A stretch of DNA of 64,000 nt, the filler included, from Dimargaris cristalligena (Eukaryota), in the NCBI GenBank assembly GCA_003614675.1. It is 8 parts of 8 records of this genome, joined end to end, with 100 filler letters (N's around TTAATTAATTAA, not from the genome) between each part and the next. Parts side by side here need not be neighbours in the genome. Positions count along the whole stretch, not along the records: positions 8,256 to 16,398 come from ML003352.1; 7 more parts are not named here. One strand, given 5' to 3'. Each line of letters starts with the position of its first letter. The first letter of the stretch is position 1. The translations under genes were made by a program, and so were the position numbers. The notes below the pieces were generated by a model. The model was not told where the DNA came from. It ran no database searches and worked only from the letters and a program-made list of their open reading frames with translations. Below are positions 1,471 to 57,451 of the stretch, piece after piece.

Positions 1471-4400
1471 TCAGAAATAGTTGTAGTTTTGGGTCAGGGG
1501 CAGTTCGGCCACGGGGTCGCAGACACAGGGCACGCCGTCGGCGGTGACCCGGTACGTTTCGGGGTCCACGATCACATGGGGCAGGGCGCTGTTGAACTTC
1601 AAGTCGGACTTGCTGATATTGCGACAGTTGCGGACCGGTTCGAATTTCTTGCTGACGTTGTATCGGGTGGTGATGTTATTCGGTACCTTGGGATCCACCG
1701 ACACCTGGCTGACAAACATTACCGAGTTGAAGGCCGCGGCTTTGGGAAGGGCGCCGAACATGGGGCGAAGGTTGACCGGCTGGGTCGTGGGGATGGAGGC
1801 ATTGGCGTCGCCCATGACCGACCACGCGATGGTACCCCCCTTGATCACCATGTAGGGCCGGGTGCCGAAGAACCGCGGTTCGTACATGACCAAGTCGGCC
1901 AGTTTGCCCACTTCAACAGAACCGATAATATGGCTGATTCCGTGCGTGATGGCGGGGTTAATGGTGTACTTGGACACGTATCGCTTAATACGGAAATTGT
2001 CATGGGGTTCGGAGTGGAAAATGGGATGGTCGTGCTCATGCGCTGGGTGCGTGTCGGCGGGGCTTTTGGTTTCACTCTGTTTCGGGGGCTTAGCAGCGGC
2101 AGTATTCTTCTTCGCCTTATTACTGCTATTCGAAGATTTAGTCGCGGGAGCCTTGCTTCCATTCGAAGATTTAGCCGCGGGAGTTGCGGGAGCCTTGACT
2201 GGGGTGGGCTCATCCGGAGCCAGGTAGCCGCGCTGGACCTTCATTTTGTGGGCCGTCCGCCAAGTACGGGAAATCACCTCCCCGACCCGCCCCATGGCCT
2301 GACTATCCGACGAGAGCATACTAATGGCCCCTTGGTCGTGCAGTACGTCCTCGGCCGCGATGGTTTCGGCGCGGATGCGGGATTCCGCAAAGGCCACGTC
2401 CTCAGGGATGTTCTTACTCAAGTGGTGGCACACCATTAACATGTCAATGTGTTCGTCTAGGGTGTTCAGGGTATAGGGCCGGGTGGGGCTCGTCGACGAC
2501 GGAAGCACGTGGGGCACCCCGACCACCTTAATAATATCGGGCGCGTGCCCTCCCCCCGCCCCTTCAGTGTGGTACGTGTGGATCGCGCGACCTTTGAAAG
2601 CGGCCACCGTGGCTTCCACAAACCCCGCCTCGTTGAGGGTGTCCGTATGAATGGCCGCTTGCACGTCGTAAGTTTCGCACACGGAAAGACAGGCATCGAT
2701 GGCCGCGGGAGTGGCCCCGCAGTCCTCGTGGAGCTTCAACCCGAGGGCCCCCGCTTCGATTTGCTCAATCAGGCCCTCGGGCGCCGAAGTATTGCCCTTC
2801 CCCGTGAACCCAAAGTTAAGCGGGAGCGTGTCGGTCGCTTCAATCATGAATTGTATATAGAAACTACCCGGAGTACAGGTAACCGCGTTAGTGCAGGTCG
2901 ACGGTCCCACGCCGCCCCCGATCATGGTGGTTAAGCCGCTGGCAATAGCCTGGTGGACACAATCAAGAGATATCCATATAGCGCGCCGTCAAAACAAACG
3001 CAATGGAGTAGGGTTAGCGAGGGTGTGAATTAGTAGGTGGATAAAGGTTCAAAAATATAGAGAAATCGCAGTCGGTGTAATGGAATATACCAAGTGTACT
3101 ACTTACCTCATCGCATTGGCCGAGTCCGATGAAGTGAACGTGCGTATCAATCCCCCCCGCGGTAATAATTTTGCCCTCTCCGCCGATAACGTCGGTGGTT
3201 ACTCCGACAATCATACCATCGGTCACGCCTTCCATTACATCGGGGTTGCCGGCCTTGCCGATTCCGACGATTTTACCCTTAATGATACCAATGTCGGCCT
3301 AGAGGAGGGGGAGTGTGTGGAAATAATAAAGTAATACCGAAGTTAGCCTAACCTAAATCAATGTCATTCGAATCGTCCCGCTGGCTGGGATTAGAGCCAG
3401 TCGCACCTATGCAGGCCTACCCCCCACTTAAAAAAAAACACCAAAACCACATTTACCTTGTAAATGCCGGTGTAGTCCACGATAAGGGCGTTAGTAATGA
3501 CCAAGTCGAGGGCCACGCCGTCCTTGACCCCGACGTTCGAGCCCATGCCCTCCCGAAGCACCTTGCCGCCCCCGAATTTACACTCATCGCCGTACTTGGT
3601 GCAGTCTCGTTCCACTTCCAAGATTAGGGCCGTGTCCCCCAGGCGGACTCGGTCACCCGTGGTGGGGCCGAACATATCGGCGTACGTGTGCCGATCCATA
3701 ATGTGGGGCTGGATGGTGGCATTGGAGTCGTTCTTCGTTTTCGGCTGGAAGAAGTGCTTGAACCCTTGGGCGGCAATGCGGTCCTTAAGCGCGGCCAAGT
3801 TCTTGGCGGACCGGTTGACCGGGCCGGTAGCTAGGTGGTTGCCACCCCGGATGACCCGGTGTCCGGCAATATCTATCGTGGTGACAGTCTTCGATTCGCC
3901 CGGCTCGAAACGGACCGCTGTCCCAGCAGGAATATCCAGTCGTTTGCCATAGGCCAGAATACGGTCAAACTGAAGGAACGCATTGGCCTCAACCAGATGG
4001 AAGTGTGAGCCCACCTAAATAAACCGACGTGTAATTGGAATTGGAGTTGGAAAAGGGTGTAATAGCAAAGCATGTTAGACCAGTCGGAATAAAAGCTGGT
4101 TGAGTGGCGCGCGAGGGGGGATACTTCAATAATAGGGGTCCTACTCACCACCACCCCCTCTCCCCGCACACCTTGAGTTAACTATGGGCCATATAGACTG
4201 AGATGCATCCAATAGTCTGTGGAATGATGGTATTAGCAGTCACGCCATCTCGACCACAGTCCCGCGGATACTGCGTTGGATACTGCAAAGAAAGGGACAA
4301 TAGTCAAGGCAGGCCTTACCTGGATCGGTCGGTCCCCAGTATTAGTCACCAGTAGGCGGCAGCGTTCCCGTCCGGGGTTCAAAGGGATGGTGGAACCGCG

Positions 4401-8155: not shown

Positions 8156-8255
8156 NNNNNNNNNNNNNNNNNNNNNNNNNNNNNNNNNNNNNNNNNNNNT
8201 TAATTAATTAANNNNNNNNNNNNNNNNNNNNNNNNNNNNNNNNNNNNNNNNNNNN
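8156..8255. other. Artificial contig-joining spacer
   Basis: N run around TTAATTAATTAA (stops in all six frames), 100 nt. Confidence 0.99.
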
Positions 8256-8550
8256 CACATTCCCCCCCTACCTTTGGTTAGTTGTATTATGAGATAACTC
8301 AGAAAGCAGTAGTCACGTGATTATATTATCTTAGTTTATTTAGTAGTAATTTCTGTTGTGAGCGTTAAATGTACACCGTAAGCCTAGTTTTTTTTTCTTT
8401 GATTAAAATTTGGACTTACTTCAAGGGAATTCAACAAATTCCAAATGGGAGGGATAGAGACTTAGGAACTATTCAACTCATGCTTAGGACCATACACTCA
8501 GTGGCTCATCCCATTTTCTCATTTTATCACTTCTAGTCTACATTGCTACT

Positions 8551-11500
8551 ATGGTTAAGCGATCCAATAAGCGGAAGCGCGGTAAGCAGAGTCGACGACT
8601 TTATTTTGCCCCACGTAGTCCCAGGCTCACGTCACCCTAGCTTCGTTTCCGGCCCCAGAGCGACCTAGCGCAAGTTCAGAGCATTATCGACGGAAGTGGG
8701 GTACGGTTAAGGCTCTGAACTGGTGTGAGTGTCTCCCATGGGCCACCAAGGCGACCTTCTGACCCGTCCATAATTGCTACATAGCATAACCCGTTTCGCT
8801 ACTTTTCACTAATCGCATTACTCCCACGTCGTATTAAATATAATTTTCCTCCTACTACGGGACCCCGTTGAAATTAATATAGATGGAGAATCGGCCGAGG
8901 CTAAGCGCCTCTATGTGGGTGGCCTCGCCGAGGCCATCTCTGACGGCGACCTCGGAAACAAATTCAAAACATATGGTGAAGTTACTGGCGTCGAAATTAA
9001 GCGCGATAATTTAACTGGTAAGTAAACCTCCCATTGGCAATGAAGTCGGCTATTATAATGTAATATGTGCCCCGAACCACCATTTTAAATCAGAACAACC
9101 CGTCTCCTTGATTCTGACATACTAACCATTATAATTATACATCGTTTCGGGGCAATGGTTTATTAGGTCTACACCGTGGTTTCGGGTTTGTTGATATTAA
9201 AATCACACCTAGTCAATTGGCACATTGTAAGCATCATTTTTTCCATTTCGAGTCTCGGGTCGCAATTGATGACCCATCCTGTAAAGTGGGCGGTGGTTTG
9301 AATTGCATCGCATATCTGGCCTCAGTCGGAATATCAAACCTATTTCGGGTAGACTAAACTATATTACTCCCGCCCCCCTTTCTCTCCCTTTATATATATA
9401 TATATCTGACTAGGCGTCCGAACCCTTCATAATGCCCGGTGGCTTAAAAAGGACTTGATCGTCCAGGTGTCCAAACAAAGCGTGTTGTCGAAGTAAGTTA
9501 ACCGACTATTCTTGCGAACTATTTACGATTACCGAATTACCGTTTCTGAATACATAGGTTTTTGCCCATATATTATTTCTCGACTCATATTCACTTTTTT
9601 TTAGCCTACCCTTTCCTTCACTCAACCACTCTTTGCTAACGGGGTTCCCAAATCTAATGTGTCGCTATTATCACTATTTCCGCTCACCAGGGTTACGCTT
9701 GAACGGGACGCTTCAACACTACCGGAGAAACCCGTTAAACGCAATAAGGCTAAGCTCACTAACCCTTCCCAGCCGGTAATTGAAGAGGCTGCGGATATGA
9801 GTCTAGTGACCGATGATAATGCGCAGGATCGCAAGGGCTGGGAACAGAGTCGCTATGGCCGGGCGGTGGCCCGGATGCGCATGGAAAAGCCCGACGGAAC
9901 CTATATCACCTATGATCCCACCAAATACAAGAGCAACCTGGTCAAACTTTCGGGTCGGGACGTCGACAGTGCGCTACCCATTGGCTCGCTGCCCTGGAGT
10001 ATTGATGACCAGCTTGAAACCCCCGCCCACCGAGCTAGTTCTGAGTTGACTGCTACTAAAAATCCGGATGTACCGTCGGCAGTTCCTTCCATGTCGTCGA
10101 CGGAGTCCCAAGCCCATCCACGGACCGATTCGAAGAAATTGACCCAGGAGGAGCGAATCAAGGCGGCGGAGCTGAAACGGGTAGAGAGTCTGGCCCGGCG
10201 CTCGGAGTCGAAGTTTAGCCAGCGGCAGGTGATCCAGCAAGCCCTGCGGACAGCGGATGGAGGTCCCCAATCTGGTCCGTCGAAAAACAAAGTAGTATTC
10301 GAAAAGGACAGTAGTGACGACGACGATAGCGATGTTGTGACTGAGACTGGTCATGCTAAAGTCCCTACCAGAGTCGACACTGAAGATGATTATGACTCTT
10401 CGGATGACGACAGTCCCCGCCCAGATCAGCCAGGATTTGATGCGGCCGCTGCCGCCAAGGACCCCCGGTTCCAATTGGACCAGCCCCTTTTCGGTGGCAA
10501 ACGCAAGGCTTCCCCGGAATCCCAGGAGGAAAGCAAGCGTCGGGCTGGCGATGTAAGCGACGCGAATAGCGATACCGAGGGCAACTTCAACCTAGCCGCC
10601 GATCGGGCCCAAGCCCAAGACGTTTTACGGGCCATGTTCAGCGAATCGAAGGATGGCAAAGAGTCTTCCCGTGCTAGTTGGGGAGTGGGGGATGACCCAG
10701 CGACGATGGCGGCGGAGGCCGACGGCCCAACCCAGGAAGCGGTGGAATCCCACTACCTCTATTGGAAACCCATGGTCCGGTTCGACCCCGACGCCCCGGA
10801 CTGTACCGATCTGCTGTTACCCGGAGCGATGGAGGAAGAGGAGGAGGAGAAGGAAGAGGCTGAACTCATGGCAAAGAGTAGTGCCGCCAATGCCGTGGAT
10901 CCTTCGTTGCCTCCGCCCAAATTCGAAAATAAGCCGCTCCCTGCGGTGGACACGGCCCGGAAATTTGCTATCCAATCCGATTTGCGGTCCCTCTTTGGCC
11001 GCTCGGAAACCCGAGGCGATGAAGGGGAAAGTGAGGACGCCGGGGGTCTTGGGTTTTCCTTGTTAGCGGGAGTGGATGATGACGACTTTACGGATTTACC
11101 CGTGGAAGTGGTCGAAAAAACAGAGACTCAAGAACCTGGATGGCAGGGAACCAAGGTAAGTCTATCAGAAAGTGAAAAAACAAATCAAAATGTAGCTGCA
11201 AGATCTCAGTTTATGGTTTCTAGCAATCAGTACATGTTTATGCAATAATTGTCACTACTGAAACTGATCATTTGCTGAACTTATTGTTTTTACAACTCCA
11301 ATTCTTGTTATCCGTTTTTTGTAGGGTCGTACGGACAAGACTGCCGCCAACGACATTGAAACGCAGCGAATCCTGCCGAACTTCATGTTCTTCTTCCATC
11401 ATAACAACACCAATCTCGCTGACCGGTAAGTTCCCCACCTCCTTCGATTCCCGTCAAGGGGGACGATTGCTCAACCCTTCCCCACCGAGTATTCAGTGGA

Positions 11501-12060
11501 TAGTATAACATGGTTTGTCTACGTAGCAAGGATCCGCTGGTTGCATTTAGGCATCTACTTACTTTATAGCATTACTTAACCTAAACAATTTCCGTGATTG
11601 TCTTGTACTACTGACCTTGCCTTTGTATAGATCCTATTACCAAGAAAATGAAACCAAATCAATTTTCCCTGTTCCCGAGGACATGTAAGTATTCGGCACG
11701 GGTTTTAATATTATTTTGGCTGATTGGATGAGTATTAACCGGCTAATGTCACGTATTGTTCTTAGCATAGATCCATTTGTTTGAAAACCTGCCCCTATTG
11801 CGCTATAGGGGTCCAATGTAAACGTGAACTACACCCTAGAATATATATTATAATATTATGATTTTGCTAATCGATTATTCGTTACATTTTCAATCCACTT
11901 GACCATGCCTGGGGCGAAATGCACACTTTTAATATTTAGGTTCTCTTTGAAACAAGCGTTGAACCGACAGAACAAAACCGCCGTCCGCCGCACGTTTATG
12001 CGGAAATTGCGTTTGGCTGCCAATAGCCGTCGGAAGAATCTCGCTAGCATTAAGGCATAG
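8551..12060 (+). CDS. NOL8: Nucleolar protein 8-like (N-terminal RRM, acidic middle, basic C-terminus); about 8 exons
   Basis: Exons 8551-8581, 8883-9017, 9167-9226, 9414-9492, 9691-11155 and three short 3' exons splice in frame. They give KRLYVGGL...KFKTYGEV...RGFGFVDI...LHNARW (NOL8-type RRM), then FMFFFH and a basic helix ending at TAG 12060. Confidence 0.8.
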
Positions 12061-12509
12061 GGAGAGGTAGTCCATGGGTCAAGATATGCCTGTCCGAGTA
12101 GCTGGTTTAATTAGTCGTTGGCCAGACATATCCCTTGGGTCCACTGCCGAATGAATAACGATTGGACGTGGGAGGAGAATTGTAGCAAGTGGATGACATT
12201 ATAAATGATATTTTTTTATGTTTGGAATGGCTTATTGAAGCAATAAAATACTCGGGCTTTCTACTTTGATGCTCTTGCTTTAATTTTTAGCGCCATATTA
12301 TAGAATTCCTTCAGTTACACTATGAGCCTTACATGCCATCTCACAGTATTGTAGTATCGAAATACAAATGGGGGCGTCTAAGCGCAAGTGTCAAATTGGG
12401 GACGGGTATATAAGGGGTTTTTAGTAAAAAATATATTGATAGTAGCTGAGAAACACCAAGGGGATGTTTGCGGGGGTACTTATATGCGGGGATGCCCCGG
12501 GCAAGTCAC

Positions 12510-13153
12510 TCAGGAGTAGTAAAGATGGCACCAACCTGTACCAGTAGGTACTCGGAATACTCTAATGGTAGTGGGTGAAGATTTCGGATCAACAGTAAGA
12601 GTATAGTAGAGGTGTCCTTCGAGCGGTGGTTGAGGTCGGAGGTAATGTTTATCATGGTACCCGGTTTTACCATAGAAAACATAGTCTGACACAATAATGC
12701 TTAGTATTAGCGAATGACTTGGTCACAGTCGTATAGATTATCTTGCATGGTAGACTGAAATCTAATGCAACTAACCCAAGTTGGGCTTGGTAGGGGTGGA
12801 TAACTTAATTTTACTAGAGTAAATGTTGCTGTTAATAAGAGCTGAATGTGGATAAAATCTAAATGTTAAGAGGCATTGCGTATAAGGAACTGAATGGCCC
12901 CTCAATTAAAGGCAATAGACTGTGGAATTACGTCTGGCTAAGGGTGATCTGTGGTGATGGAAAGCCTCTGCGACGTTTAGTTACGTGCAGCTGATCTAAC
13001 AGCACGTTATTACCCGGCCAGAGATATTCGTCCACTTCAAGGTGGTTTGCTTCGAGGAGTTTCATGGCTGCTGAGCGACGGACGCGAATAGCCAATTTGG
13101 GGGTTTTGCTAGAGGCCCTGTGCGGGTACACAAATCCACCGGCTGCCATATCA
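12510..13153 (-). CDS. Possible additional 3' exons, perhaps belonging to the upstream F-box gene
   Basis: Short ORFs 13149-12928 and 12692-12510 are each preceded by a YAG acceptor and a branch-like CTAA motif. The join to upstream exons was not resolved. Confidence 0.25.
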
Positions 13154-13351
13154 CTAAGGATATATTAGTCCATATACCTATTCCCATTATGTGTTGGAAA
13201 TATAAGTTTGATGGTAAACGCAAGTGCCTTCAGATACAACTAAAACAATTCAAAGAAGAGAGAAAGAACCGCAAGGGGCAAAGCTAGATGCCCACGGTTG
13301 GTTTTATTGAATTGAATAATAGCAGTAATAACGATTAGGACGAAGTTCCAG

Positions 13352-14769
13352 TTATAGGATGATATAGTAACGGCTATAGTAAAGTCCCAAGTATAGGACG
13401 AGCCAATCACAGAGATGGAATCCGTGGGACGGGGGAAATGAATTTCCAACATTATGCACCATACATTTTTTCTGGGCATTTTTAAAGCCCAGCGCACCTG
13501 CGTAGCGGCAGTCATAATAAATGTGGCGGGCTATTTCGGCATCTTGTTCGGGGCCGGAATCATCAAACTCCAAAAGCAACAGAGCCGTATAGGCGTACAA
13601 GTCAGGTACGATCAGTGGCCCACTATCTTTCAGGCTCCATAGTTCCATTAATTTGGCGAATTGACCAGCGGTGGCTAGGACGGCACTGACGCTGGCTACA
13701 AGTTGATTGATATGGGCCTCGATAATATCATTACTCCACATGCCGTGGAAGTCTTCGTTAAATATCGCGAGGATTAGGTCGCCTCTATATAGGTCTTGAA
13801 CCTCCTCAGCCGGTACATTGGCGATAAAGAAGTGGACAGCTAGTAATAATTGCGCGATTTCAGTCGCCGCTAAGGTCGGTAAAAGGTATAGCAAGGGAAA
13901 AATGACCCGCTTGTGCGTGGCACTTAGTGCAGTGTAATCCAGATACGCCCACTCCTCTACAATGGCTGCTTTTTTTGAATAGTCAGACATACCGACCCAG
14001 TCCGCCCGGTCAGCCCCAAAGGCCTCGTTATTCGGTGACTCTAATCTTCCTGTAATATGGCCACCGAATTCCTGCCAAGCGAAGGTCATGATCGTATCCA
14101 TCGGTTGCATTGGAAAGAGCGCTTGAAATTGGCTCAGGCTGATCGGGTCACGTTTTCGCAAAAGCTCATTAAAATGGCGCATAAGCTTCCGGACACGAAA
14201 AGATATAGCAATGGTTATGGTCCAATGAATAATGGCCGTGGCCAAGACGAGTTAGCCATTGATTTCGAAAAGGGGGATATTGAACACTATCAGTGCACTG
14301 AGGTGCCGGTCACTTGCGAACAATCCTCTAGTGTAGCAATGCGGTAGGATACATACTATGCAAAATGGCCAGTCGAGCAACACTCTATACGGGACCTTAT
14401 TTTGACTGGAGCCAGTGAACTTGCCTCGAAATAGGCCTGGCTGTCACGGTGACTCTTGACAACTCTGCTCCAATATCGGTTAACCGCGGTCATTGGTACC
14501 CGGTCGCTATATGGTAAATAATCCAGGGTACTGTGGATAAGTTCAGGGGGAGGGGGCATCAATGAGGCCAGTTTGCTGGAAGGAGACTTGCCTTTAGCAC
14601 CGCCGCTTGATGCGCTGCCATTTGGTTTGTCACTGGGCTGACTATCCCCCGCGCCATTGGAGACCTCACTCCCAGAGTTGTTACTATCGTTAATGGGCTG
14701 AGGCCAACTGGCTGCGCGGTGGACCACGGTTAGGCCAAGTAGGGTCACGGATACAACATACAGCTTCAT
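13352..14769 (-). CDS. Putative secreted F-box protein (signal peptide, Ser/Gly linker, F-box, helical domain); multi-exon model uncertain
   Basis: MKLYVVSVTLLGLTVVHRAAS resembles a signal peptide. LMPPPPELIHSTLDYLPYSDRVPMTAVNRYWSRVV fits the F-box consensus. A 297-codon same-strand ORF follows about 110 nt later and is probably joined by short introns. Confidence 0.65.
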
Positions 14770-16398
14770 GGTCTACATGCGACAGTAAGCAAGGGAGAGT
14801 GGGTGGGAAGTAGGGCGGGGAAGAGCTGAATAGTATATGACCAGCGGATATACAAGGTAGAATATGGCTGTAAAAAGCATTGACATGGACGCGTAGGTAA
14901 ATATCGGCCAGGGTTTAGAGGATAAAATGGAACAATGATTGAACCGAGTAGAGGGAAAGGCGGCAAGGTTATGTATTCAGAAAGGTAGCTAAAAAAACTG
15001 CTGACTGGTGGGGACATGTCCGGTGAGGGCTACAATTGAGCGACTCGTCTGTATCAACAGAGAGAGGTACGGATGTATTTCACAACCACACCCGAACTGG
15101 CGAATTTATATTACAATAGGATATAGGAGCTATTCCCATATTCCTTGTAACAGGGGGGAAGGGAGGGTGCTCCAAATCTGGATCAGGTACTCCCTAGCCA
15201 TGCCACATAGGTGGGTGTACAAATGTCCCCACTTTTAGATTAGTCCGCCTAAAGCAAGGGCCACCGAATAGGCGATGCTATGGTTAAACAGCTCGGCAAC
15301 TACGTAACCAGTTGCTTCACTGAGGTCTATCACCTGTTCACCCATTAGAGAAGACCGCCTGACTAACAGGGACCCCCATCCCTTTAGGAATAATCTCATG
15401 AAGGCCTCAGGTGGTCCCACTGTATTCATCAGTTAAAAGGGGATCCACAAGAAAAGATGGAGCCAGACGGATTAGGATGGGGTTATTAACCAACGCGTTG
15501 GTAAAGCATGTCCCTCAACAGCTATGCATTGTCATACTTGGCCATTATTCCATTCCCGAATTGATGGGGACATCAGACAAAGAATCCACTCATGATATTT
15601 TGGTGAAACCAGATCTTGATTTCCCGTTTGACTCCCCCGAGCCCTCTCGTCTCCAGTCATAATGGAAGGCGCTCGGGGTTGTCAACCAATTTCAATTCAC
15701 CATTATTTCCAATAACGGCCTGGTGGATAGCCAGCATCGCCCCTTTCCCACCCTTCTTGAACCTGTTGACAATTCAAACACGACTCATCAGGTCTTCCGT
15801 ACGGGCGTGTGACCCATACTACCCCAACCAACGGCATTTGAAGAATCTGGTCAATTGTCATTAAAAACATACTGGCCCTAGTTGGGATGGCGCAACTAGG
15901 AAACGCATGCTACTTTTGCGATACATAATTTACCCGAACCCCCCATGAGATAATGTGGCAAGGACCCAATAGTTGCTAGTGGGCCTGTCCGTATGGGAAC
16001 AGCCGTACATGTTTAATCGTACATGGCCATCACCACAATTGTTACCTGAGATATTCCCGTTGATAATAGTATGGTCCTGGGCGGATCAGTGAGACTGAAG
16101 TCCATGGGATACCCTGTATAATAGGAGCGGTCGTAGAACAAGGTATGGCTAATTATAGAGGAGGGTTGGAATAATAAAAAATTTAGGACAGAACTGGACT
16201 ATTGAGGATAGCTAAGATATTCGCGAATTGACCAGCTTATGTAAAGGGGGACGGCAGTGCCACTAACTGTAGTGGCCTGCTTCCATAGTTTGGACAGGGA
16301 GGGGGTTAGAGCGCGAATCGACCTAGGTTATCGATGGCTATAGTGTAACCAAGTGGGCCGAGTAGGGCCAAGAACTATAGATAAGAATAACAAAGATG

Positions 16399-16498
16399 NN
16401 NNNNNNNNNNNNNNNNNNNNNNNNNNNNNNNNNNNNNNNNNNTTAATTAATTAANNNNNNNNNNNNNNNNNNNNNNNNNNNNNNNNNNNNNNNNNNNN
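16399..16498. other. Artificial contig-joining spacer
   Basis: N44-TTAATTAATTAA-N44. Confidence 0.99.
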
Positions 16499-19400
16499 AC
16501 GTGATAATGCAGATGCTGCTCCAGTACCGATGGTGGACCCAGTCAGAGTTCGCCGATCGGGCACCTTTTCACCAGCCTGGGCGCTGTCTAAAAGCATGTG
16601 TGTTTTCGGGGTCACCGTCAGTTGAACCTTTACTAGACTGACCGTAAAGGGGGGACTTTGGGTTTGCGGCCGAGTTGTCACCTTGAGAACCAGGCGGTAC
16701 CGGTGGTCGGAAAACCCGTAGTCCCGGAATACAACGGGGTGGTCGGGGGTTGCCAAGGTAAAGTCAACGGGGGGCGGTGTGATTTCAAATGGATCCGGGT
16801 CAGACTCGGCTCTTAGCCTGGGGTCGATAGGGACCGGGGCCGCTGGTTGCCGAGAAGGTGGTCCTAAGGGGGTTGGAGAGGACTGTGCTGCTTCTAGCCT
16901 ACGGCGGGTCAGAGTCACCTGATCCGTGGAAATGACGGGTGGGTCAAGCAGGGTTGAGGTCGGCTCAGTCTCAGCCACGGCGTCTAATGTCGGGTCCGAG
17001 GGCTGACAGGCGAACCCTGGTGGGTTGAGCTGGATTTTAGGGGAGTTGAAAGTTGACCAGTCAATTTCATCGGTATCCAAGCGTTGGGAAAAGGAGCGGA
17101 GGGGTGTGCGTAGAATGGGGACATCGCCACCGTTCAGGGTGGCGCGGGGCAATGTCGGGGGAGGCGGCGGGAATATAGAGAAGCGCCGATCTGGGGCTAA
17201 ACCCGACCCGGGCGCCGCCACGGCCAGAGCCCGGGGCCCAAGACTGACCCGGCGAACATGTTCCAATTGTCGGAACATTGTCCGCCGACGCTGGATATCG
17301 ATATGCCCCCCAAAGTCCCACTTGGACCGTTCGGGGGGTTTTACTGGGTGCGGGGGCGAGCCTGGGATCGAGGCGAGGGCCGGGGTTGTTCGATCGAAGG
17401 GATTGTTGGCAATATCAGAGGATGCTGCTAGGGGTGGAGAGCGCATGCCCGTTGATTCGTCTGATTCGCTATCGGTCGAGCTCCAGTCGTCGGAGGACCC
17501 GGACGATCCTCCACCAAAATCATCCTTGTTTAGATAGAACAGGCCCGATTTGGAGAATTCTTCAATAACCAGGATGGGGGACTCTGCGGATACCGCCAAA
17601 CAGCCAAGCTGGCTCTGCGCATCGACAAGAGTAAGTCGGGGGGCTAGAAATTCACCAGGAATCGGCTCTGTTACAGCGGCAGCAGGGTGGGTGGCTGATA
17701 CGGTTGGGGATCGGAAAAAGGGATCCGTATGCGTAAGGGGAGTGGACTTGGTTGCTCCCGTACGCGTAGAGGAGTCGTGGTGGTGGGTCACCCCCGCTGG
17801 TGGATTAGAAAGGGGTTGGAGGAAGCCTGTCCGGAACGGGGCCTCAAAAACGAAGAGAAAGGATATTTGGCCCAAGGCGGACAGCAACTTTGCCGTAGTA
17901 TCCTCGGTGGCGTGGGCCGCAGCCGACTCCGCCAGTGGCCCGTGAGGGTTCTCGACCCAGACGGAGAGTTGGGCATGCTGAAGGCCGTGGGTTTCGGGGA
18001 GTACCGCCACGGTGGTGCTCCCCGAGGTTCCCGAGCCCGAGCCCGGGCGCCGGTTAGCGGGATTGCTAAACAGCTGGTCTGCAACGGATGGACGAGGGGG
18101 CAGCGCGACCGGGGCCGGAGGAGGTAGTATCAGCTGCCAGTGTACTGCTCCGTGTTGGGCCATGGCCTGGACCAACTGAACCTGGGGAAGATCCGAGTTT
18201 GGGGCCTGTAATAAAAAGTCGACGCGGTAGAACCGGGGGCTTGGGTGGGCAGTTGGCCTAGGGGTAGCCTTGGCCTGGCCCTCTGAATACCCCTCATCGC
18301 CAAGGTTATCACCAGCCAATTCTGACTCCACCGACGGACTCGGGGTGGGTCGCAGTTGGAAGTCCAGGAATACCATCGCCGTGCATTTCCAGCCTCGAGG
18401 CGATATGGTAATGTTCGAACTAAATTCAGCGTTCAAGTCATAGCAGTCGCTATTGAGAACCGAGACCCCCGATAGACGGTGAATATCGTCTAGTGACGTG
18501 GAATAAAATACCCGAGCATCCGGGGGAGGGGTAGGCACCGCCATATAATCATCAGCAGCTCGGTGATTTGTAGGGTCGTTCCGTGAATGATGAGCACCAC
18601 GAGTCGCGGCGGAGTCACATTCTAGCCCGGAGGTTCGAGTGAATGCCGCAGGTGGTTGGGTGGATGCCTCGTTAGCTGAGGTGAATTCTTGGTGGAGCGC
18701 CAGGCAACGATCCAAGAAGACCGATGGTGCCCATCCAAAACTCACGGTATCGGTGGGGCGGAAGTCGATTTTGAATGTAGTACTTGTCCGAGAAAGGGCG
18801 GAAGGATCAGTTGAGCCGCGCAGGTCAGTGGATGGGGCTCGGTGGGGGGTCACTAGAACCTGGCTAAGGGGTGGGGGGGAAAACCACATCCCCAACGGCT
18901 CAGCCGTTGGTTCGGTGGGCGGGTGATTGATGGTCAGGGTCAGAGAGTTGTGTAGGGCGGGGGGTAGATTGGCCAAAGTCAGGGACGCGAGATCCAAAGG
19001 GCTCCCGAAGGGCGGAGGGGTGTAGCGCCAAACAGGAATGGTCGTGACGATGGAAACGGCGTAGGCGCCGCTCTGAATGGCAAAAAAGCATACCGTTTTC
19101 TTATCCGGGCTGGAGGTGATATAAGAGGTCTCGGACGGATCGATAAAATGACGCCCCGCGGGCGGTGACTCGTTGGTCAGGCTGGTCACCGGAAGATCCC
19201 ACTGAAGCTCCGGATCAATGTCCTTCAGTGGACAATGCTCACCGTGGACGGGCCGGTCACCCTTACGCCGGGGCATGGTCTGGCTAAAACTTGCGCTACT
19301 GCTACTACTGTTTTCGCTTTCTGGACGGGATCCGGGCGGTTGGATCACGGGAGGCTTATTCTGACTTCGGAAGGTGGTGGGGATAGGTCGCCGCCGATGG

Positions 19401-20059
19401 GTTTCGGAACATTTACAAGCCCGGCGGGTCTGGGCGGTGGCTGAGAAGGGCATGGCCGCTAGTTGGGCGGTTTCCTCGTCTAGTTCGGCACTGCTTTCAG
19501 TGCGGGTTCGCCTGGGTGGATCAGGCGGACGGACATCACTCTGGACGGATGCGGAGGCGGCACCCAGGGGAACCTTGTCGCATACGTAGAGGGATTTGGG
19601 GGCTAGCGTGTCGGCAATGGACGGAGTGGGTTTTCGGAGGGTGGGGGAAGTGGAGAGCGGACGGAACGGTGATACGGACGGGTGGGGGGGCTGCAGTAAA
19701 CTTTTGAAGTGTTTGGCCTGGAGCCCCTGTGGGGTGACGGGAAGGGTGGACTGGGAGCGGGCCCGGGAGGAGTGGTCCTCCGGTGCAGCCCCCGCCCCTA
19801 ATAACAGGGTCGCGGAGGTTGTTGAGCGACTGATGGAACTATGGGGGCGGGAGAGGGCCCGGTCTTCAGGAGCCGGCGGCAGGGGCTCGATATGCTGGGA
19901 CACAATATCGCCAATGGCAGAGTAGGGAATGAGAGGAATAGTGGTCTCGGGCCGGGTAGCCTCAAGCTTCACTCTGATTTCCAAAAGCAATTGTCCGTTG
20001 TCCAGGGTTTCACCGTCTAAAGTGACTTGGTCAAACCGATACGGAGGGATCTCATCCAT
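16499..20059 (-). CDS. Large Pro/Ser/Thr-rich hypothetical protein, 3'-truncated at the contig end
   Basis: Uninterrupted ORF of more than 1180 codons. Likely start MDEIPPYRF at 20059, with an upstream ATG at 20284. No family recognised. Confidence 0.75.
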
Positions 20060-21302
20060 GGCGGCGTGCGTACGGCTAGGGGCCGGGTGGGGGTGCAAAA
20101 ATACGGCAATGAAATAGGGGCTGCAAAAGACGGAAGGGCGGGTATTAAGAAGAAGAGGGGAATGCAACCCGGAAGTATTTGAGCAAGGAAAGCAGAATGA
20201 ACCAGGTGCGGGAAGGGGAAGTTGAGAAAAGGAGTGGTACACTGAACTGGCCAGCGGGGTTTGAATTATAGGGAGGGCATGCATATCGTTAAGAAGGGAA
20301 GCACACTACCAACAGTCGGAAGCGCAGTGGGTTGCGGGGACAATCAACGACCATCACGCTTCTTGGGCCACTGGTCGCTGGGGGCCAATGCCTCGCTGGC
20401 CAAAGTACAGCATGGCCAAACGTCGCACGAACATGTTCCCAGCCTGATTGGACAATACCATCGTAATTATGTTTTGAGTTGGTCGTTTTCAAAGGCTACC
20501 ACGGCTCAGCCGGACTTGCAAAACCGTTCACACCCAACCCCACTAATTACCACCAATCAGTACTGTCCTAGGGTTCGACTTGGCTCTTGTTCACCCGAAC
20601 CAATTTGGTGGCATTGTCGTTGTCTTTGCACCGTTGTCCCCCCCTGCAGGGTGAATATAATGGGTTGAGACTGTTTCGAAGGCCGTCAAATCGCTTTAAC
20701 AGACAGGAAAAAAACGCCCCATTGATAGGAAATCGGTGAGTGAGTGCAACCAGCCCAGGCCTAGTAACAAAAAATAAAAGAAAAGAGAGTCACAAATTAA
20801 AGGAGCCCTAGGTATCATCTGGAATACAATATATATAAAAAAAGAGCGTGGATAATCATCAGAGCCTAAATTAAATGCAGTGGTCAGTGTGCAGATGGGA
20901 TGCATACCCAGCTATTGGCGGGGCCCTAGGCATGATACTACACCAGCGTCACCAAGAAATGGTGAGTGATATACAGCATATTGGAATAACAAACCCCGGA
21001 TTTTAATGCCCTGCCCGTGAGATCCCTTGGGCTCAAAGGACCAAGGTCTCGTTTTATTCATCTTGAAAACCGGGTAACGCCAATGGCACTCTGCCGGCCG
21101 ACTTTATTTCCGTGAATCAATAAGATATTACATACTTATGTACAAGAAGGATGGCCTGATCGCGCACCATAAGTGATAAATACAGGTTAGTTGGGACCAG
21201 CTACTTCGCTTATCAAACGGAGCAGGTTTCGGGGTTCAACAGTACCCTCCTAGTGGTAATCCGTTGAATTCGCAATTTCGAACCAGCCGTCGCGTAAAAA
21301 CC

Positions 21303-24622: not shown

Positions 24623-24722
24623 NNNNNNNNNNNNNNNNNNNNNNNNNNNNNNNNNNNNNNNNNNNNTTAATTAATTAANNNNNNNNNNNNNNNNNNNNNN
24701 NNNNNNNNNNNNNNNNNNNNNN
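24623..24722. other. Artificial contig-joining spacer
   Basis: N44-TTAATTAATTAA-N44. Confidence 0.99.
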
Positions 24723-28991: not shown

Positions 28992-30197
28992 TTACCACCC
29001 GAAAATAACCCGATCATGACCGGCTAGGTCTTGCCAAACACCCACCTGGCTGAATCCAGCTTGAAGTAAATACTCCACGATTGGACGAGTCTGGTGATTC
29101 CCACCTGTTTCCATCACCAATTTGGGGATAGCGGGTAAATTTGAATCCGGCGTTAGCTTCAGCAACTTAGTATTTGTAGCAGTTTGGCCGGCTGGCCGGA
29201 CAATTCCCTGGCGAACTAGTTGGGGAATTAACTGAGCGTAAAAGGACAGACCGTCGTTGTCGCCATGGGGAGCTCCGGGGTTGGGGTGAAGGGTTTGGGG
29301 GACAAGGGCGCGCCGGTCTTCCCAGAGACCCACTTCGGGTAAGAGGGTAGTATGCTCCATTGCCGAAACGTACGGTGGGTTAACTACAACCATATCAGCT
29401 GGTATATCCAAGCCCGAACCCGCAGAGTCGTTGATCGGCCAATGGGGCTTTAGTAATAGGTGTAGATCGGACGACAAGACATCCGCCAGGAGAAACGAGA
29501 CCGAGTTGCACAAACATGTCCGATTGTGGGCCAAATTATCCAAGGCGAGCTGATAAGCAGTAGGTGCGATATCCACCCCAATAATTTGAGCCGACCGGGT
29601 CTTTAGTCCAGCTGCGAGTTGGAGGGCTATACAACCAGACCCGGTACATAAATCCAGGATACGCAGCGGAGAGGATGCCGAATTACTTGACTGCTCGTCG
29701 GAAGTTTTGGACAGCTGATTTAGCCACCGGATCAATTGCATGACCCACTCCTCAGTCTCCCAGCGAGGGATGAGAGTGGGCGAGCGGACTAAGACATCGA
29801 TGAGGTCGCCAAACGGCTGAGTTCCTAGGATGTACTGTAGAGGCTTGCGGTGGTGCACCCGCTCGAAGACTGCCCGCCGTAACCAGCGATACTGGTGCGG
29901 CCGAAGGTCCAATATATCAGGCATAGATAGTGGTTGGTGCGAGTGGTTCATTTTCGCAGGGTGGCAGCTAGTTTCGGTATTTCGTCGACGAATCCGATGT
30001 AGGTACGATCGGGGTGAGTTCGCGGGACATGCCGAATTGTGGCCAGAGGTTCGGGTCGGGATTTGGGCGGCATGGTCTTGAAGCCAACGCAATTCCTGTC
30101 GGGCGTTACTCAGGCCTCCCTCTGTGGGCAATTTGGCTAGGCGATCGTGAAGACCCCTTAGAGCTTGGGCAAGCGTGCGAGCATGACCCCGGGGCAT
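28992..30197 (-). CDS. MTQ1: HemK/PrmC-family release-factor glutamine N5-methyltransferase, mitochondrial type
   Basis: KPLQYILGTQPF, LIPRWETEEWV, ILDLCTGSGCIAL, NPPY, DGLSFY and WQDLAGHDR. Confidence 0.92.
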   Translation of the reverse strand: MPRGHARTLAQALRGLHDRLAKLPTEGGLSNARQELRWLQDHAAQIPTRTSGHNSACPANSPRSYLHRIRRRNTETSCHPAKMNHSHQPLSMPDILDLRPHQYRWLRRAVFERVHHRKPLQYILGTQPFGDLIDVLVRSPTLIPRWETEEWVMQLIRWLNQLSKTSDEQSSNSASSPLRILDLCTGSGCIALQLAAGLKTRSAQIIGVDIAPTAYQLALDNLAHNRTCLCNSVSFLLADVLSSDLHLLLKPHWPINDSAGSGLDIPADMVVVNPPYVSAMEHTTLLPEVGLWEDRRALVPQTLHPNPGAPHGDNDGLSFYAQLIPQLVRQGIVRPAGQTATNTKLLKLTPDSNLPAIPKLVMETGGNHQTRPIVEYLLQAGFSQVGVWQDLAGHDRVIFGW

Positions 30198-31065
30198 TGA
30201 AGAAACGGATCCCTCAAGCGAATTCCGCGTACCTCCGGAAAGAATAGCTTGGGAAGTTCAATGGAGAGAGGGGGGAGTAAAAAACGAATGAGACTCGCTA
30301 TATCTGTTTCGGTATTTTAGCCCTTATCGCTAAAATGGCTGTGCCGTTGGACCAAGCTATTACAGGCTATTTCTAATCATTTAATTTGGTTAAAATTGCT
30401 GAAAAGCACAACTGGGTACAGCAGTCGTAAATACCGGATTTAAAGTGGACTTATTCAATCCGGGAGTGGCGATTCCTGGCCTATATATCGAACCAAGAGT
30501 GGCTCGGATGCTGAATATTAACCATTAAATTGCTTTCTAACCCTAACAGCACCTTTAAAACCGACTACTGCATATAATCCCCAGGCATTGTTAAGGGCCC
30601 CCAATACCTTTCGGTACATTTTTAATCCATCATCGGTGTATTTCAAGGCTATACAGTGGCCTCCTCAGAATACAGAAATAGATAATGCATCTAGCTTGTC
30701 TGTTTTCTGCATCAGATGGACGAATACAATACGCTAGACAAGTTCTAGCAGCAAGCTCAGCCTCTAGTTTATTCCCTCAAGCCGAGAGATGAAACCCTTT
30801 AACTATGAACTAGCAAAGATAAACCACAATAAATTTTACGAGGGCTATCAATCTCCTGTCCACCTGGAAGTCACCTGACCCACTTTTATCCAACTGGGAT
30901 GAAAAAGAGGGAAAACACGATAGTGCTGTCCACCACCACCATCATTCAAACGCGTATTGGTGTATAAGAGATTCCTTGGAAACCGCTGTGCCTCGATTCT
31001 ACCCTTTTACTTCATTTGTCGTTTCTTCATTGTCGAACTCGGAGGTATCCCAGCACATCATCAAA

Positions 31066-32839: not shown

Positions 32840-32939
32840 NNNNNNNNNNNNNNNNNNNNNNNNNNNNNNNNNNNNNNNNNNNNTTAATTAATTAANNNNN
32901 NNNNNNNNNNNNNNNNNNNNNNNNNNNNNNNNNNNNNNN
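32840..32939. other. Artificial contig-joining spacer
   Basis: N44-TTAATTAATTAA-N44. Confidence 0.99.
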
Positions 32940-41047: not shown

Positions 41048-41147
41048 NNNNNNNNNNNNNNNNNNNNNNNNNNNNNNNNNNNNNNNNNNNNTTAATTAAT
41101 TAANNNNNNNNNNNNNNNNNNNNNNNNNNNNNNNNNNNNNNNNNNNN
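41048..41147. other. Artificial contig-joining spacer
   Basis: N44-TTAATTAATTAA-N44. Confidence 0.99.
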
Positions 41148-41347: not shown

Positions 41348-44346
41348 CTACACAGTCGGTTTCGGGGTCACCGAGGTTCTGAATCCCTTGGAAATGCTCA
41401 TTTGAGAGTCCCACATTCCCTTGAAGATACCGTCGGGTAAGGCAGTTAACTCGGCAAAAGTGCCCCATTCGGCGATCCCTCCATCCTGGACGACCAAAAT
41501 CTGGTCTGCATGAATAATGGTCGACAGGCGATGGGCAATGACCACGCATGTTTTACCCTGATTGTCGCCTTTGAGCGCCCCCTGGACCTTCCGCTCGGTA
41601 ATCATGTCCAGGGCCGATGTGGCCTCGTCTAGAAGTAGGACTTTGTGGGGCCGTACCAAACCTCGCGCGATATTGATACGCTGCACTTCTCCACCACTAA
41701 GCTTAATATTCGATGTATGCAATGACGTTTCATAACCATGGGGAAGGGACATGATTTTTCGATGTATTCTGGCTTTGCGAGCTGCCTCATGGACGTCTTT
41801 CAGCGTGGCACTCATGTTGGTGGAAGCTGAGCCGTACTGAATGTTATGCCGGATGGTTGTAGGCAGAATTTCAGCTTTCTTTCAATCCGAATTTATAGGT
41901 CAGACGGAAAGATCGAAGGTGGATGGAGCACAGTGAGGGAAAGTACATATCAATCATAGAAAATACAGTTAGGCCAGCCGGGGTTGGTAAAATTTAAACT
42001 AAAATAATCGAAAAGACAGGGAAATATTGACGAATATATATACTCCAATTCTATAGCTATTATTTTACCTGCGGTACTATCGACATGGACTTGCGGAGGT
42101 CTTTTTGCTTTACGTGGCGTACATCGACCCCGTCAATAGTGACACTCCCCCGGTTAACGTCGTAAAAACGCGCGATTAATTGGGTGATTGTAGTTTTACC
42201 ACCCCCGGTCTTGCCGACAATCGCCGTGGTGGTACCACCCTGGACCTTAAAGCTGACACCGTTTAGCACCGGGTGCTTCGAGTTGTAACTGAAATACACG
42301 TCTTTAAACTCAATGGTACCTTCAGAAATATCCCAGTTGGCAGGCGCGTCGTCGGGGTCGCATACCTCATTGTCAATATCGATGAATCGCAGAAGTGCCT
42401 GGCAGTTACGATAGACGTGGTTAACATTGCCGACAAGGTCGGCCAAATAAGTAAAAGGACGGTAGGTAGCATGGAAATGGGTCACAAAGAACATAACGTC
42501 GGTGGCTTTCATTTCGCCCCGTGCCAGACACCGCAGACACATAATGGCGCCAATTAGTTGGAATAACTTATTGACTATCCTGGGCGTGTCAGTGAACGTC
42601 AAAGGGTTAAGGGTGTCGGCATCCTCCTTAGATTCATACCCGCTTTTGGTGATTAAGTCCAGGTGCCAATCAATGTGGAACTGTTCCCCTGCGTACTGCT
42701 TCACCAGGTCACAATTGGCAATGGTCGGGGTGCGCTCCCAAAAAACCGACCCCGATGCATGCCTTCTGGCGCCATAACTCCTGGTATAAATTGGCTTGAT
42801 TACAGTGATTGTGATCAGATCCCATATACCCATGGCTAACGAAAGGGGCATGAAGTACGAGTTATAAAACCAATGGGCCCGATATATATACATCGCAATC
42901 CCAAATAATGTGGGTCCTAACTTAACGAAAAGGAGCTCCATCACTCCATGCAGGCCATTGGAGGCGCTTTGGCGCATTATTTGCTTAACACGGGAGGATC
43001 TTTCCTTGTGAAAACGCATTGGCTTGGCATACATGACCGAGTTGGCGAACACGTCGCACTTCGATCTGATAAATGATCGGAGGGTGGAAAGGCGTTTGAC
43101 TTTTCGATTCATGTGCGCAATGACCATTTCGTTGACGATACTGGCCACACCGTATTTGGCTAAAGTGGGGAAGGCCAATTCGCGACTGGCCAACGAGTCG
43201 AGCAGGTCCTTGTAGTAACCTGGTTCAAAGGTCCGAGTCCATTGGGTAAAGAACTCAATCGCCCAGTTCGATGCTAGTCGATAAGCCATGGAAGCGTCTA
43301 AAGGGAACACCAGGTCATAAATGATGCGGAATGTTCGGGTACATAACACTCGCGCCGAGTAATGGGTATAGGGAATACTGTCGGAAACTCTAAGCTTTGC
43401 AGAAGCTACCCGTTTCTTCTTGACCTCTAGCGCCAACGGGACCGGGGGTAGTTTGATTGTTGAAAAAATACCAGCGGCATGGTACCACATGATAAAATGA
43501 GGAATGGCCACACAGGTGATTATCAAGAGTAGCTTGGTGACCACGATACCTAGTGTAATATAGCGTGTGAACAAACCGGCACTAAAGGGACTATTGTTCG
43601 GATAGGAGTTAGTCAGGAGAAGTTGGCCAAGCTCCCAGGCGTGATAAACCGCCGCCACGACCCAGAATTGTAGCCAGCGGGGAATCCGACGGGGCTTCTT
43701 TTTGATAATAGACTGAAAGTCAGACTCAAAATACAGTAAATGGTAGACCGCAGCGGTGAAGGCAATGGTGACCTGTTGAATTATTGCAGAGGTGAGCCAG
43801 GAATGCCAGTCCGTCGGCGTGGCAGGGTCAGCATAAACGGCGAAAAGGACTGCGGCGGCCTCAATGTACATGCATATGAACACTATCCACATCAATGCAA
43901 GAGTGGTGCTTAGCCACGACTTGCCGGAGCCAACAGGTATCATAAAAGTCTGTAAATGGGAGTGCCAGGTCTCTACAGTACAAAAAATATACAATTTAAA
44001 TATGTTGACCAATACAAAATGGGTTACTATTCAAAAATAATCTTGAATTGGGAAATGGTGTATAAGGGGTATTAGTTACCATTACTTGACTGGATTTGGC
44101 CTCACCCTCTCTTTGATACGGTTTGATCCAGTGGTGGCCCAGGCGGTAGCGACGCATGATTAAAAAGGCTGCGATAGTGAGGTAAGCCAAGGTCATCCCG
44201 GTCGGATGCATACGGAAACCGTCGGGAGGGGAAACTTGGAACAGTAGGGCCAAGCCGACCGCCAAAAGAGCGCCTTCCCACCAAAATCCGGCCAGCTTAA
44301 ATGTGACTACCATGGTAGGTGTCACATCAGAAAAAAGTTTCTCCAT
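41348..44346 (-). CDS. ABCB half transporter, HMT1/ABCB6-like with an extra N-terminal membrane domain; 3 exons (44346-44106, 43972-42069, 41878-41348), about 891 aa
   Basis: Walker A GKTGGGKTT, RFYDV, Q-loop IVPQ, signature LSGGEVQR, Walker B LLLDEATSALD and H-loop IAHRLSTI. Long hydrophobic N-terminus. Confidence 0.85.
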
Positions 44347-49255: not shown

Positions 49256-49355
49256 NNNNNNNNNNNNNNNNNNNNNNNNNNNNNNNNNNNNNNNNNNNNT
49301 TAATTAATTAANNNNNNNNNNNNNNNNNNNNNNNNNNNNNNNNNNNNNNNNNNNN
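49256..49355. other. Artificial contig-joining spacer
   Basis: N44-TTAATTAATTAA-N44. Confidence 0.99.
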
Positions 49356-57351: not shown

Positions 57352-57451
57352 NNNNNNNNNNNNNNNNNNNNNNNNNNNNNNNNNNNNNNNNNNNNTTAAT
57401 TAATTAANNNNNNNNNNNNNNNNNNNNNNNNNNNNNNNNNNNNNNNNNNNN
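57352..57451. other. Artificial contig-joining spacer
   Basis: N44-TTAATTAATTAA-N44. Confidence 0.99.

Follow-up and report, generated by a model that had tools for sequence, protein, structure and literature searches.

A predicted signal peptide joined to a divergent F-box in a gene family of Dimargaris cristalligena: candidate secreted proteins of a mycoparasitic fungus

The stretch of DNA analyzed here (the window) comprises 64,000 nucleotides (nt) from the fungus Dimargaris cristalligena (assembly GCA_003614675.1), and on its minus strand it carries a gene in which a predicted signal peptide, a low-complexity linker and an F-box-like segment precede a large helical domain. An earlier note on the same DNA had placed this feature at 13352..14769 and had read its two open reading frames (ORFs) as a single gene. 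The boundaries have to be redrawn, whereas the joining of the two ORFs stands. A tblastn search of the window with the protein P0002 (449 amino acids (aa), H4R33_000909, a paralogue or divergent orthologue that is 47% identical and has a precomputed PF00646 match) gave three collinear blocks in open frame, with residues 1-119 at 14769-14413, residues 118-369 at 14188-13436 and residues 363-448 at 13191-12934. Because of these three blocks we describe a three-exon gene that ends at 12928-12930 and not at 13352 (Table 1). The tail of the 299-codon downstream ORF, from 13430 or 13464 to 13352 (its last 26-37 codons), is intron read-through. The start ATG (14769-14767) is the first codon after an in-frame TAG on the minus strand, and consequently no upstream extension of the ORF is possible. 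Signal and F-box lie within one uninterrupted exon, so that their linkage on one protein is independent of any splice prediction.

Database searches with the second ORF matched two proteins, P0001 and P0002, both from D. cristalligena. P0001 (238 aa, locus tag BJ085DRAFT_40415) is a different model of the same gene, to which exons of the window are identical or nearly so, its residues 168-238 matching exon 3 at 98.6% in tblastn. This public model (window positions 12931-14089) starts at an internal Met and lacks exon 1, and thus both the signal and the F-box; it also splices away the most conserved block of the family (the W-A-Y-L-D-Y ... F-P-L-L-Y-L-L-P region). For these two reasons the public record conceals the architecture described here. 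A second copy of the gene in the window was looked for and rejected, since tblastn returned this locus only, together with one 21-residue noise match at an expect value (E) of 0.37.

The intron boundaries are predicted. A single canonical GT-AG intron between the two ORFs was considered and rejected, as no well-matched GT donor leaves the frame open. In an enumeration of in-frame introns, intron 1 has a CTAAC branch-like site 66 nt from its 3' end and takes as its acceptor the first AG after that site, and its 239 nt have no counterpart in P0002. Both models of intron 2 are in frame and free of internal stops; model B retains the second conserved Cys of the family and more of the homologous spacing, and model A represents the choice made in public P0001. 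It could be argued from the splice sites that the locus is an annotation artefact or a decaying pseudogene, that is, two unrelated ORFs or a broken gene: no strong canonical GT-AG intron joins exons 1 and 2, the best candidate being of the GC-AG type, and the donor of intron 2 is uncertain, with a public model that differs. However, the collinear blocks run from residue 1 to residue 448 of P0002 without a frameshift or stop, both splice models are open, and the full-length architecture is annotated in five paralogues (P0002, P0010, P0012, P0019 and P0020). Moreover, the GCAAGT donor, the CTAAC site and the use of the first AG together form a coherent intron. We therefore regard an artefact as very improbable, and treat the locus as one three-exon gene.

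Table 1. Positions of the gene, its exons, predicted introns and protein segments in the window (residue numbers refer to the window copy unless P0002 is named)
Feature	Position	Strand	Remarks
Whole gene, start ATG to stop codon	12928..14769	(-)	3 exons, 2 introns; 441 aa (model B) or 426 aa (model A)
Exon 1	14425..14769	(-)	115 codons; signal peptide, linker and F-box; ORF 14356-14772; 54% identity to P0002 residues 1-119
Predicted cleavable signal peptide, residues 1-21	14707..14769	(-)	n/h/c and -3/-1 rule; cut after Ala-Ala-Ser, before Trp-Pro-Gln-Pro
Low-complexity Ser/Gly/Asn/Asp/Pro linker, residues 22-66	14572..14706	(-)	From sequence; three N-x-S/T sequons
F-box-like segment, residues 70-108	14446..14562	(-)	Pfam match to residues 74-108 = 14446-14550
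Intron 1 (predicted)	14186..14424	(-)	239 nt; most likely GC-AG, donor GAG/GCAAGT
Exon 2	13431..14185	(-)	Post-F-box helix and most of the helical C-terminal domain; 47% identity to P0002 residues 118-369
Exon 2, model A variant	3' end 13465	(-)	Donor as in the public model
Intron 2, model B (predicted)	13154..13430	(-)	277 nt; weak donor GTCCCA; CTAAT site 11 nt before TTAG acceptor; 441 aa
Intron 2, model A (predicted)	13143..13464	(-)	322 nt; donor GTATGG; acceptor GCAG; 426 aa
Exon 3	12931..13153	(-)	Beta-hairpin block (GGFVYPHR...KLAIRVRRS), last helices, Pro-rich tail; 62% identity to P0002 residues 363-448
Stop codon	12928-12930	(-)	End of exon 3 frame
Minimal ATG-TAG start-stop upstream ORF	14773..14778	(-)	3 nt before the start codon; read from sequence

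The gene belongs to a diversified family. A HMMER scan with P0002 over 1.84 billion cluster representatives returned 25 representatives at E≤0.001 (18 at ≤1e-10, seven at ≤1e-30), and the C-terminal domain is common to all of them. The members that can be named (P0001, P0002, P0003 and P0020) are all from D. cristalligena, and the family is, so far as seen, lineage-restricted. Exon 1 of the window gene was added to the 25 representatives, and 12 of the resulting 26 sequences reach the N-terminus of the family. The layout of signal, linker and F-box recurs in paralogues that are only 23-55% identical, and is therefore more than a product of chance. We built a maximum-likelihood tree of 21 rows (leaving out P0001, model A, the shortest fragments P0018, P0021, P0024 and P0025, and the unrelated P0026), and it resolves two clades, each with 100/100 support. 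Models with both signal and F-box are found in the two clades alike, the window copy, P0002, P0006, P0010 and P0013 in one and P0012, P0019 and P0020 in the other. Since they stand on both sides of the deepest split, the architecture predates the diversification of the family. Being a family trait, the combination of signal and F-box is a more robust observation than the view of a single gene had allowed.

Two of the segments named in the earlier note, a hydrophobic N-terminal signal and a Ser/Gly/Asn linker, are present as described. The signal was judged by a simple rule (a positively charged n region, a hydrophobic h region, classically of about 7-15 residues, and a c region with small residues at -3/-1), not by SignalP or another trained predictor. 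In the window copy Lys2 is the sole Lys of residues 1-21, residues 3-17 form an uncharged hydrophobic core (15 residues, within the 12-21 that the rule gives across the family), and Ala-Ala-Ser precedes Trp22, giving a predicted site at 21/22. Judged by eye from the alignment, all 12 of the family models extending to the N-terminus have the same layout: Met, with Lys or Arg among the first four positions, a hydrophobic core free of charge, small residues at -3/-1, and then x-Pro. The rule printed a site after residue 21 in eight of these models. For P0002, P0012, P0018 and P0019 it gave none or another site because its h-region ran too long; by eye, these four have the same Ser, Gly or Cys at position 21, again followed by x-Pro.

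The signal is also the most conserved region of the family. Mean pairwise identity (66 pairs of 12 sequences) is 48% over residues 1-25, compared with 15% in the linker, 24% in the F-box, 24-26% in the C-terminal domain and 35% in the last 70 residues. Such conservation of the signal, above that of every other part of a protein that diverges fast, speaks for its translation and use, and the same pattern of a conserved signal is seen in families of secreted effectors and toxins. The start ATG has an A at -3, and the next in-frame ATG (Met71) has a T at this position.

An alternative explanation is that the gene encodes an endogenous F-box protein for the parasite's own Skp1-Cul1-F-box (SCF) ligases, in which the hydrophobic stretch either goes unused, translation or transcription starting near Met71, or anchors the protein in a membrane with its F-box in the cytosol of the parasite. 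Since Skp1 resides in the cytosol or nucleus, an intracellular role is the default expectation for any F-box protein. In the window copy, Met71 is in frame and immediately precedes the F-box, and a Met occupies this place in P0002 too. Large lineage-specific F-box families are moreover possible in fungi, as exemplified by the 31-member orphan PF12937 family in Choanephora (PMC5238444, in the part of the text available). However, a signal at 48% amino-acid identity, against 15-26% in the linker, F-box and C-terminal domain, is hard to explain if it is untranslated, and P0012, P0013 and P0019 have no Met just before the F-box. The anchor version has to contend with a short core, a preceding Lys or Arg and small residues at -3/-1, which by positive-inside reasoning is the geometry of a cleaved signal that translocates the C-terminal part. 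An endogenous role is in our judgment unlikely.

Downstream of the predicted cleavage site, Pro23 is invariant in all 12 models (window positions 14695-14706 encode residues 22-25), most of which read R-P-Q-P, with W-P-Q-P in the window copy; that the two x-Pro dipeptides at the mature N-terminus constitute a processing, protection or uptake motif is pure speculation on our part. The linker that follows corresponds to residues 26-68 of P0002, which are disordered in the AlphaFold2 model (predicted local distance difference test, pLDDT, below 50). A hydropathy scan of the family found no conserved 19-residue hydrophobic peak downstream of the signal, the single peak of 1.65 in the window copy containing a Glu and not being common to the paralogues. 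Likewise no C-terminus of the K/HDEL type for endoplasmic reticulum (ER) retention or of the glycosylphosphatidylinositol type was found, the proteins ending in Pro-rich tails such as ...Q-E or ...Q-T. With neither a membrane segment nor an ER-retention-like end, the default fate of the protein would be secretion.

The F-box-like motif of the earlier note was compared with PF00646 and PF12937. Both models match residues 74-108. Over these 35 residues PF00646 scores 18.2 bits (E 0.0023), where the cut-off is 20.5, and PF12937 scores 17.1 bits (E 0.0049), where it is 24.3, so that the window copy stays below both cut-offs, whereas the homologous segment of P0002 (53% identical there) exceeds that of PF00646 (25.0 bits, E 1.7e-5). 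The hallmark of an F-box is an L-P-x-E core followed by a hydrophobic pattern. The Pro and Glu of the P-x-E core do not vary in any of the nine aligned family segments, and the window copy retains the Trp in N-R-Y-W, like the canonical C-K-R-W. A profile of the nine segments, searched against all PDB sequences, recovered eight chains at E≤1. Five of these carry names of F-box or SKP2 proteins and align through their F-box (FBXW7 at 0.048, FBXL5 at 0.13, FBXL3 at 0.52, a SKP2-like protein at 0.92 and FBXW21 at 0.96), and a sixth (C85627) belongs to an entry that also contains an F-box protein. When the profile of the whole family was searched against the same sequences, the F-box segment matched Dia2, an F-box protein, at E 0.34, and the only other matches were two uteroglobin chimeras (E 0.11 and 0.12). 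The AlphaFold2 model of P0002 places three short helices at residues 75-84, 87-94 and 98-106 (pLDDT ~80), and then a long linker helix. We conclude, from homology, that the segment is a divergent F-box, and its binding to Skp1 is putative. A motif scan found no Skp1 in the window.

The unrecognized helical sequence that the earlier note had reported after the F-box is real. The 299-codon downstream ORF has no credible Pfam match (DUF1281 alone appears, at E 0.11), and among the window ORFs, P0002 and 27 family rows the Pfam scans gave the C-terminal domain neither leucine-rich repeats (LRRs), ankyrin repeats nor any other match, nor was any enzyme-like or wall-binding domain found. The model of P0002, computed from a 27-row alignment, has a mean pLDDT of 78.5 and a predicted template modeling score of 0.74. 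Its C-terminal ~330 residues are confidently modeled, with many 10-residue blocks above 90, as a solenoid-like run of helices that ends in a small sheet (383-387 and 393-400) and a Pro-rich tail. With the whole model as query, Foldseek against the PDB gave 0 matches at E≤0.001 (best 0.14), and VIA-align against 48,161 chains gave none at Z≥8; the best Z of 5.8 (Pex8; root-mean-square deviation 8.1; 176 aligned) is within the noise for helical proteins according to the tool's own notes, and the top matches are generic helical repeats. By these searches, made with the whole model of >400 residues, the C-terminal domain has no recognizable relative, and in the model of this paralogue it is a confidently predicted and possibly novel fold.

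Within this domain, two Cys residues (C345 and C360 of P0002) occur at fixed spacing in 13 of 13 rows of clade II, and are absent from those rows of the other clade that have letters there. In the window the pair is encoded in exon 2, in the Y-D-C-R-Y-A-G ... K-K-C block at about 13460-13515. The pair would be compatible with a disulfide formed in the secretory pathway. A basic, Pro-rich tail is conserved at the C-terminus of many family members and reads, for example, ...F-P-P-P-R-x-x-x-x-Q-E; in the window copy (12931-12970) the last residues are ...F-P-S-P-Q-I-T-L-S-Q-T.

Taken together, the protein is predicted to consist of five parts: a 21-residue signal, a mature N-terminus in which the residue at +2 is Pro, a linker of ~45 residues that is disordered and glycosylatable, an F-box, and a C-terminal domain of ~330 residues. 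This order is observed along the gene and across the family, with signal and F-box on one exon. The description of D. cristalligena as a haustorial parasite also agrees with the literature: in the available part of PMC9866270, Dimargaritales are reported to form haustoria on other fungi, and to parasitize hosts among Mucoromycota and Ascomycota via appressoria and haustoria. We hypothesize that the gene is a plausible candidate for a secreted protein that redirects the ubiquitin machinery of the host fungus, which is the most coherent reading of the data and to which we assign a probability of roughly 45%. According to this hypothesis the protein would enter the ER and have its signal cleaved, and the parasite would secrete it, the haustorium being the most plausible site. 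It would next cross the haustorial interface into the host fungus's cytoplasm, where the F-box would dock on host Skp1-Cul1 and the variable helical C-terminal domain would select host proteins for ubiquitination. Cleavage, secretion, host uptake, Skp1 binding and any substrate are steps that we infer.

The case that the earlier note made for a secreted F-box effector is partly supported. A cleavable-looking signal and an F-box share one exon and are conserved across the family, but the F-box of the window copy falls under the cut-offs, the Leu of its L-P-x-E core is lost, and the boundaries were wrong. Several observations weigh against the proposed secreted effector. First, the F-box signal is weak. 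The window copy scores below both curated Pfam thresholds, only two of 27 family rows have an F-box model match of their own at E≤0.01, and the window copy reads P-P-P-P-E-L, with Pro replacing the Leu of the L-P-x-E in its paralogues. Every match of the family profile to the PDB is weak, the best having an E of 0.048. Folded alone, the F-box fragment of the window copy forms one merged long helix (fragment residues 26-45); Foldseek gave this fragment one match, at E 7.1, and no F-box structure, and in VIA-align its highest Z was 4.1 and none of the 50 rows was an F-box chain.

The same observations would favor a secreted or secretory-pathway protein in which the F-box-like helices no longer bind Skp1 but serve as a structural or other binding module, the site of action being the cell wall, the haustorial matrix or the endomembranes of the parasite itself. 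Such a protein would be in keeping with a weak F-box signal (a window copy under the Pfam cut-offs and two matching rows of 27), with the Pro in place of Leu, and with the failure of Foldseek and VIA-align to match either the P0002 model or the window fragment to F-box domains. It would also suit the N-glycosylation sequons in the linker and the Cys pair kept in clade II. On the other hand, loss of Skp1 binding would leave the invariance of Pro and Glu in nine of nine segments to be explained, as well as the preference of the family profile for true F-box proteins, aligned on the F-box. The layout, moreover, in which a large variable binding domain comes after the F-box, is that of an SCF substrate receptor, and the Pfam scans revealed no enzyme-like or wall-binding domain. 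We consider this explanation quite unlikely.

Secondly, further points tell against the effector reading. The call of the signal is that of a simple rule and not of a trained predictor, and the in-frame Met71 just before the F-box could yield a cytosolic isoform. Fourteen of the 26 family sequences fall short of the N-terminus and show no signal, 11 with a downstream Met start and three without a Met start; of these 14, P0001 at least can be shown to be wrongly modeled. On the tree the Cys pair falls on one branch and so represents one event. Finally, classic secreted effectors are small, unlike this protein, which is large and poor in Cys, and we know of no route that would take it across the host membrane.

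A broader version of the hypothesis is tentative, and we hold it to be possible though doubtful. It proposes that a diversified family of SCF-receptor mimics, exported by the conventional secretory route, might be used by Dimargaritales against other fungi. The conserved signal and x-Pro N-terminus would mark a dedicated haustorial route of export, processing or uptake, the F-box would plug into host Skp1-Cul1, and the fast-evolving helical domain would pick the targets. If true, this would be, to our knowledge, the first fungus-to-fungus E3-ligase mimic, together with a new substrate-receptor fold.

Almost nothing is known of how biotrophic mycoparasites control their fungal hosts at the molecular level. 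A family in which an export signal and an F-box are conserved provides a concrete and testable hypothesis, namely that the ubiquitin system of the host is hijacked, as bacteria and a gall midge do to plants, in a setting where host and parasite are both fungi with very similar Skp1-Cul1 machinery. The uncharacterized helical domain may be a new module for substrate recognition, and the whole architecture is hidden by the present public gene model of the locus.

With regard to its surroundings, the gene sits on the piece at 8256-16398 (8143 bp, ML003352.1). Seven artificial spacers (44 N, TTAATTAATTAA, 44 N) at 8156-8255, 16399-16498, 24623-24722, 32840-32939, 41048-41147, 49256-49355 and 57352-57451 split the window into separate contigs of ~8.1-8.2 kb, and gene order across them is not genomic. 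No repeats or transposons were found around the gene within 11000-17000, except for an artificial spacer. The sole other large ORF on the same piece (9605-11248, plus strand) encodes an acidic, Ser/Asp/Glu-rich low-complexity protein with no Pfam match, and an ORF listed as 16451-20305 begins within a spacer. The other contigs carry ordinary genes at 1474-2988 (minus strand), 28995-30257 (minus strand), 42063-44030 (minus strand) and 57476-58855 (plus strand), the types found there being an amidohydrolase, a methyltransferase-like ORF, a fragment of an ATP-binding cassette transporter ATPase and the FACT subunit SPT16.

Judged by title and abstract, supplements excluded, none of the papers listed in the literature searches treats secreted F-box proteins in Dimargaris or in mycoparasites. 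The Dimargaris papers PMC6784888 and PMC9866270 treat proteases, secondary metabolites and phylogeny in the parts available; the main text of the former contains no occurrence of F-box, secreted, effector or ubiquitin, and the latter uses 'effector' solely for plant pathogens and in its reference list. Among fungi that live with plants, F-box proteins are listed as effector candidates in the secretome of Piriformospora indica (PMC3708536), and NLS_30765 of Rhizophagus clarus is an effector candidate with an F-box-like domain (PMC4746824). As far as the available text of these papers goes, the likeness is that fungal F-box effector candidates are proposed to act inside host cells; the difference is that they are individual candidates from bioinformatic surveys of plant symbionts, with no family of such architecture described. 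In Dimargaris, by contrast, a diversified family has kept both signal and F-box, and its host is presumed to be a fungus.

Cytosolic SCF receptors of the FBXO type, such as yeast Dia2 and human FBXW7, share with the Dimargaris family an F-box, a linker helix and a large substrate domain, and the family profile aligns to their F-boxes. They differ in that their substrate domains are built from WD40, LRR, tetratricopeptide repeats and the like, and not from the Dimargaris fold. We know of no ordinary cytosolic SCF receptor with an N-terminal secretion signal.

Bacterial F-box effectors include AnkB of Legionella and VirF of Agrobacterium. RipG7/GALA7 of Ralstonia binds Arabidopsis SKP1-like proteins, and its F-box is required for virulence, as stated in the available part of PMC4617103. 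In all of these systems (RipG/GALA, AnkB and VirF) an F-box encoded by the pathogen recruits host SKP1 for the ubiquitination of host targets, which is the strategy proposed here. They differ from the Dimargaris family in being injected by type III or type IV secretion, instead of carrying an ER signal peptide, and in having LRR or ankyrin target domains.

In the Hessian fly (Mayetiola destructor), the SSGP-71 effectors make up a very large family whose members have secretion signals. Their N-terminal F-box is combined with LRRs, they interact with Skp proteins of the host, and they are regarded as mimics of the host's own F-box proteins (PMC4617103, same part of the text). Like the Dimargaris proteins, they constitute a family of a eukaryotic parasite in which an N-terminal F-box is followed by a target-binding domain. 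That domain consists of LRRs in the fly, however, and of an unrelated helical domain with no Pfam match in Dimargaris; the host is a plant in the one case and presumably another fungus in the other, and there is no sequence relationship beyond the F-box. Since its target domain is neither LRR nor ankyrin, the Dimargaris protein is an analogue in layout and not a member of the SSGP-71, GALA/RipG or AnkB families. In conclusion, the interpretation of the Dimargaris family as effectors, plausible but unproven, represents a variant of a known strategy and not a new category.

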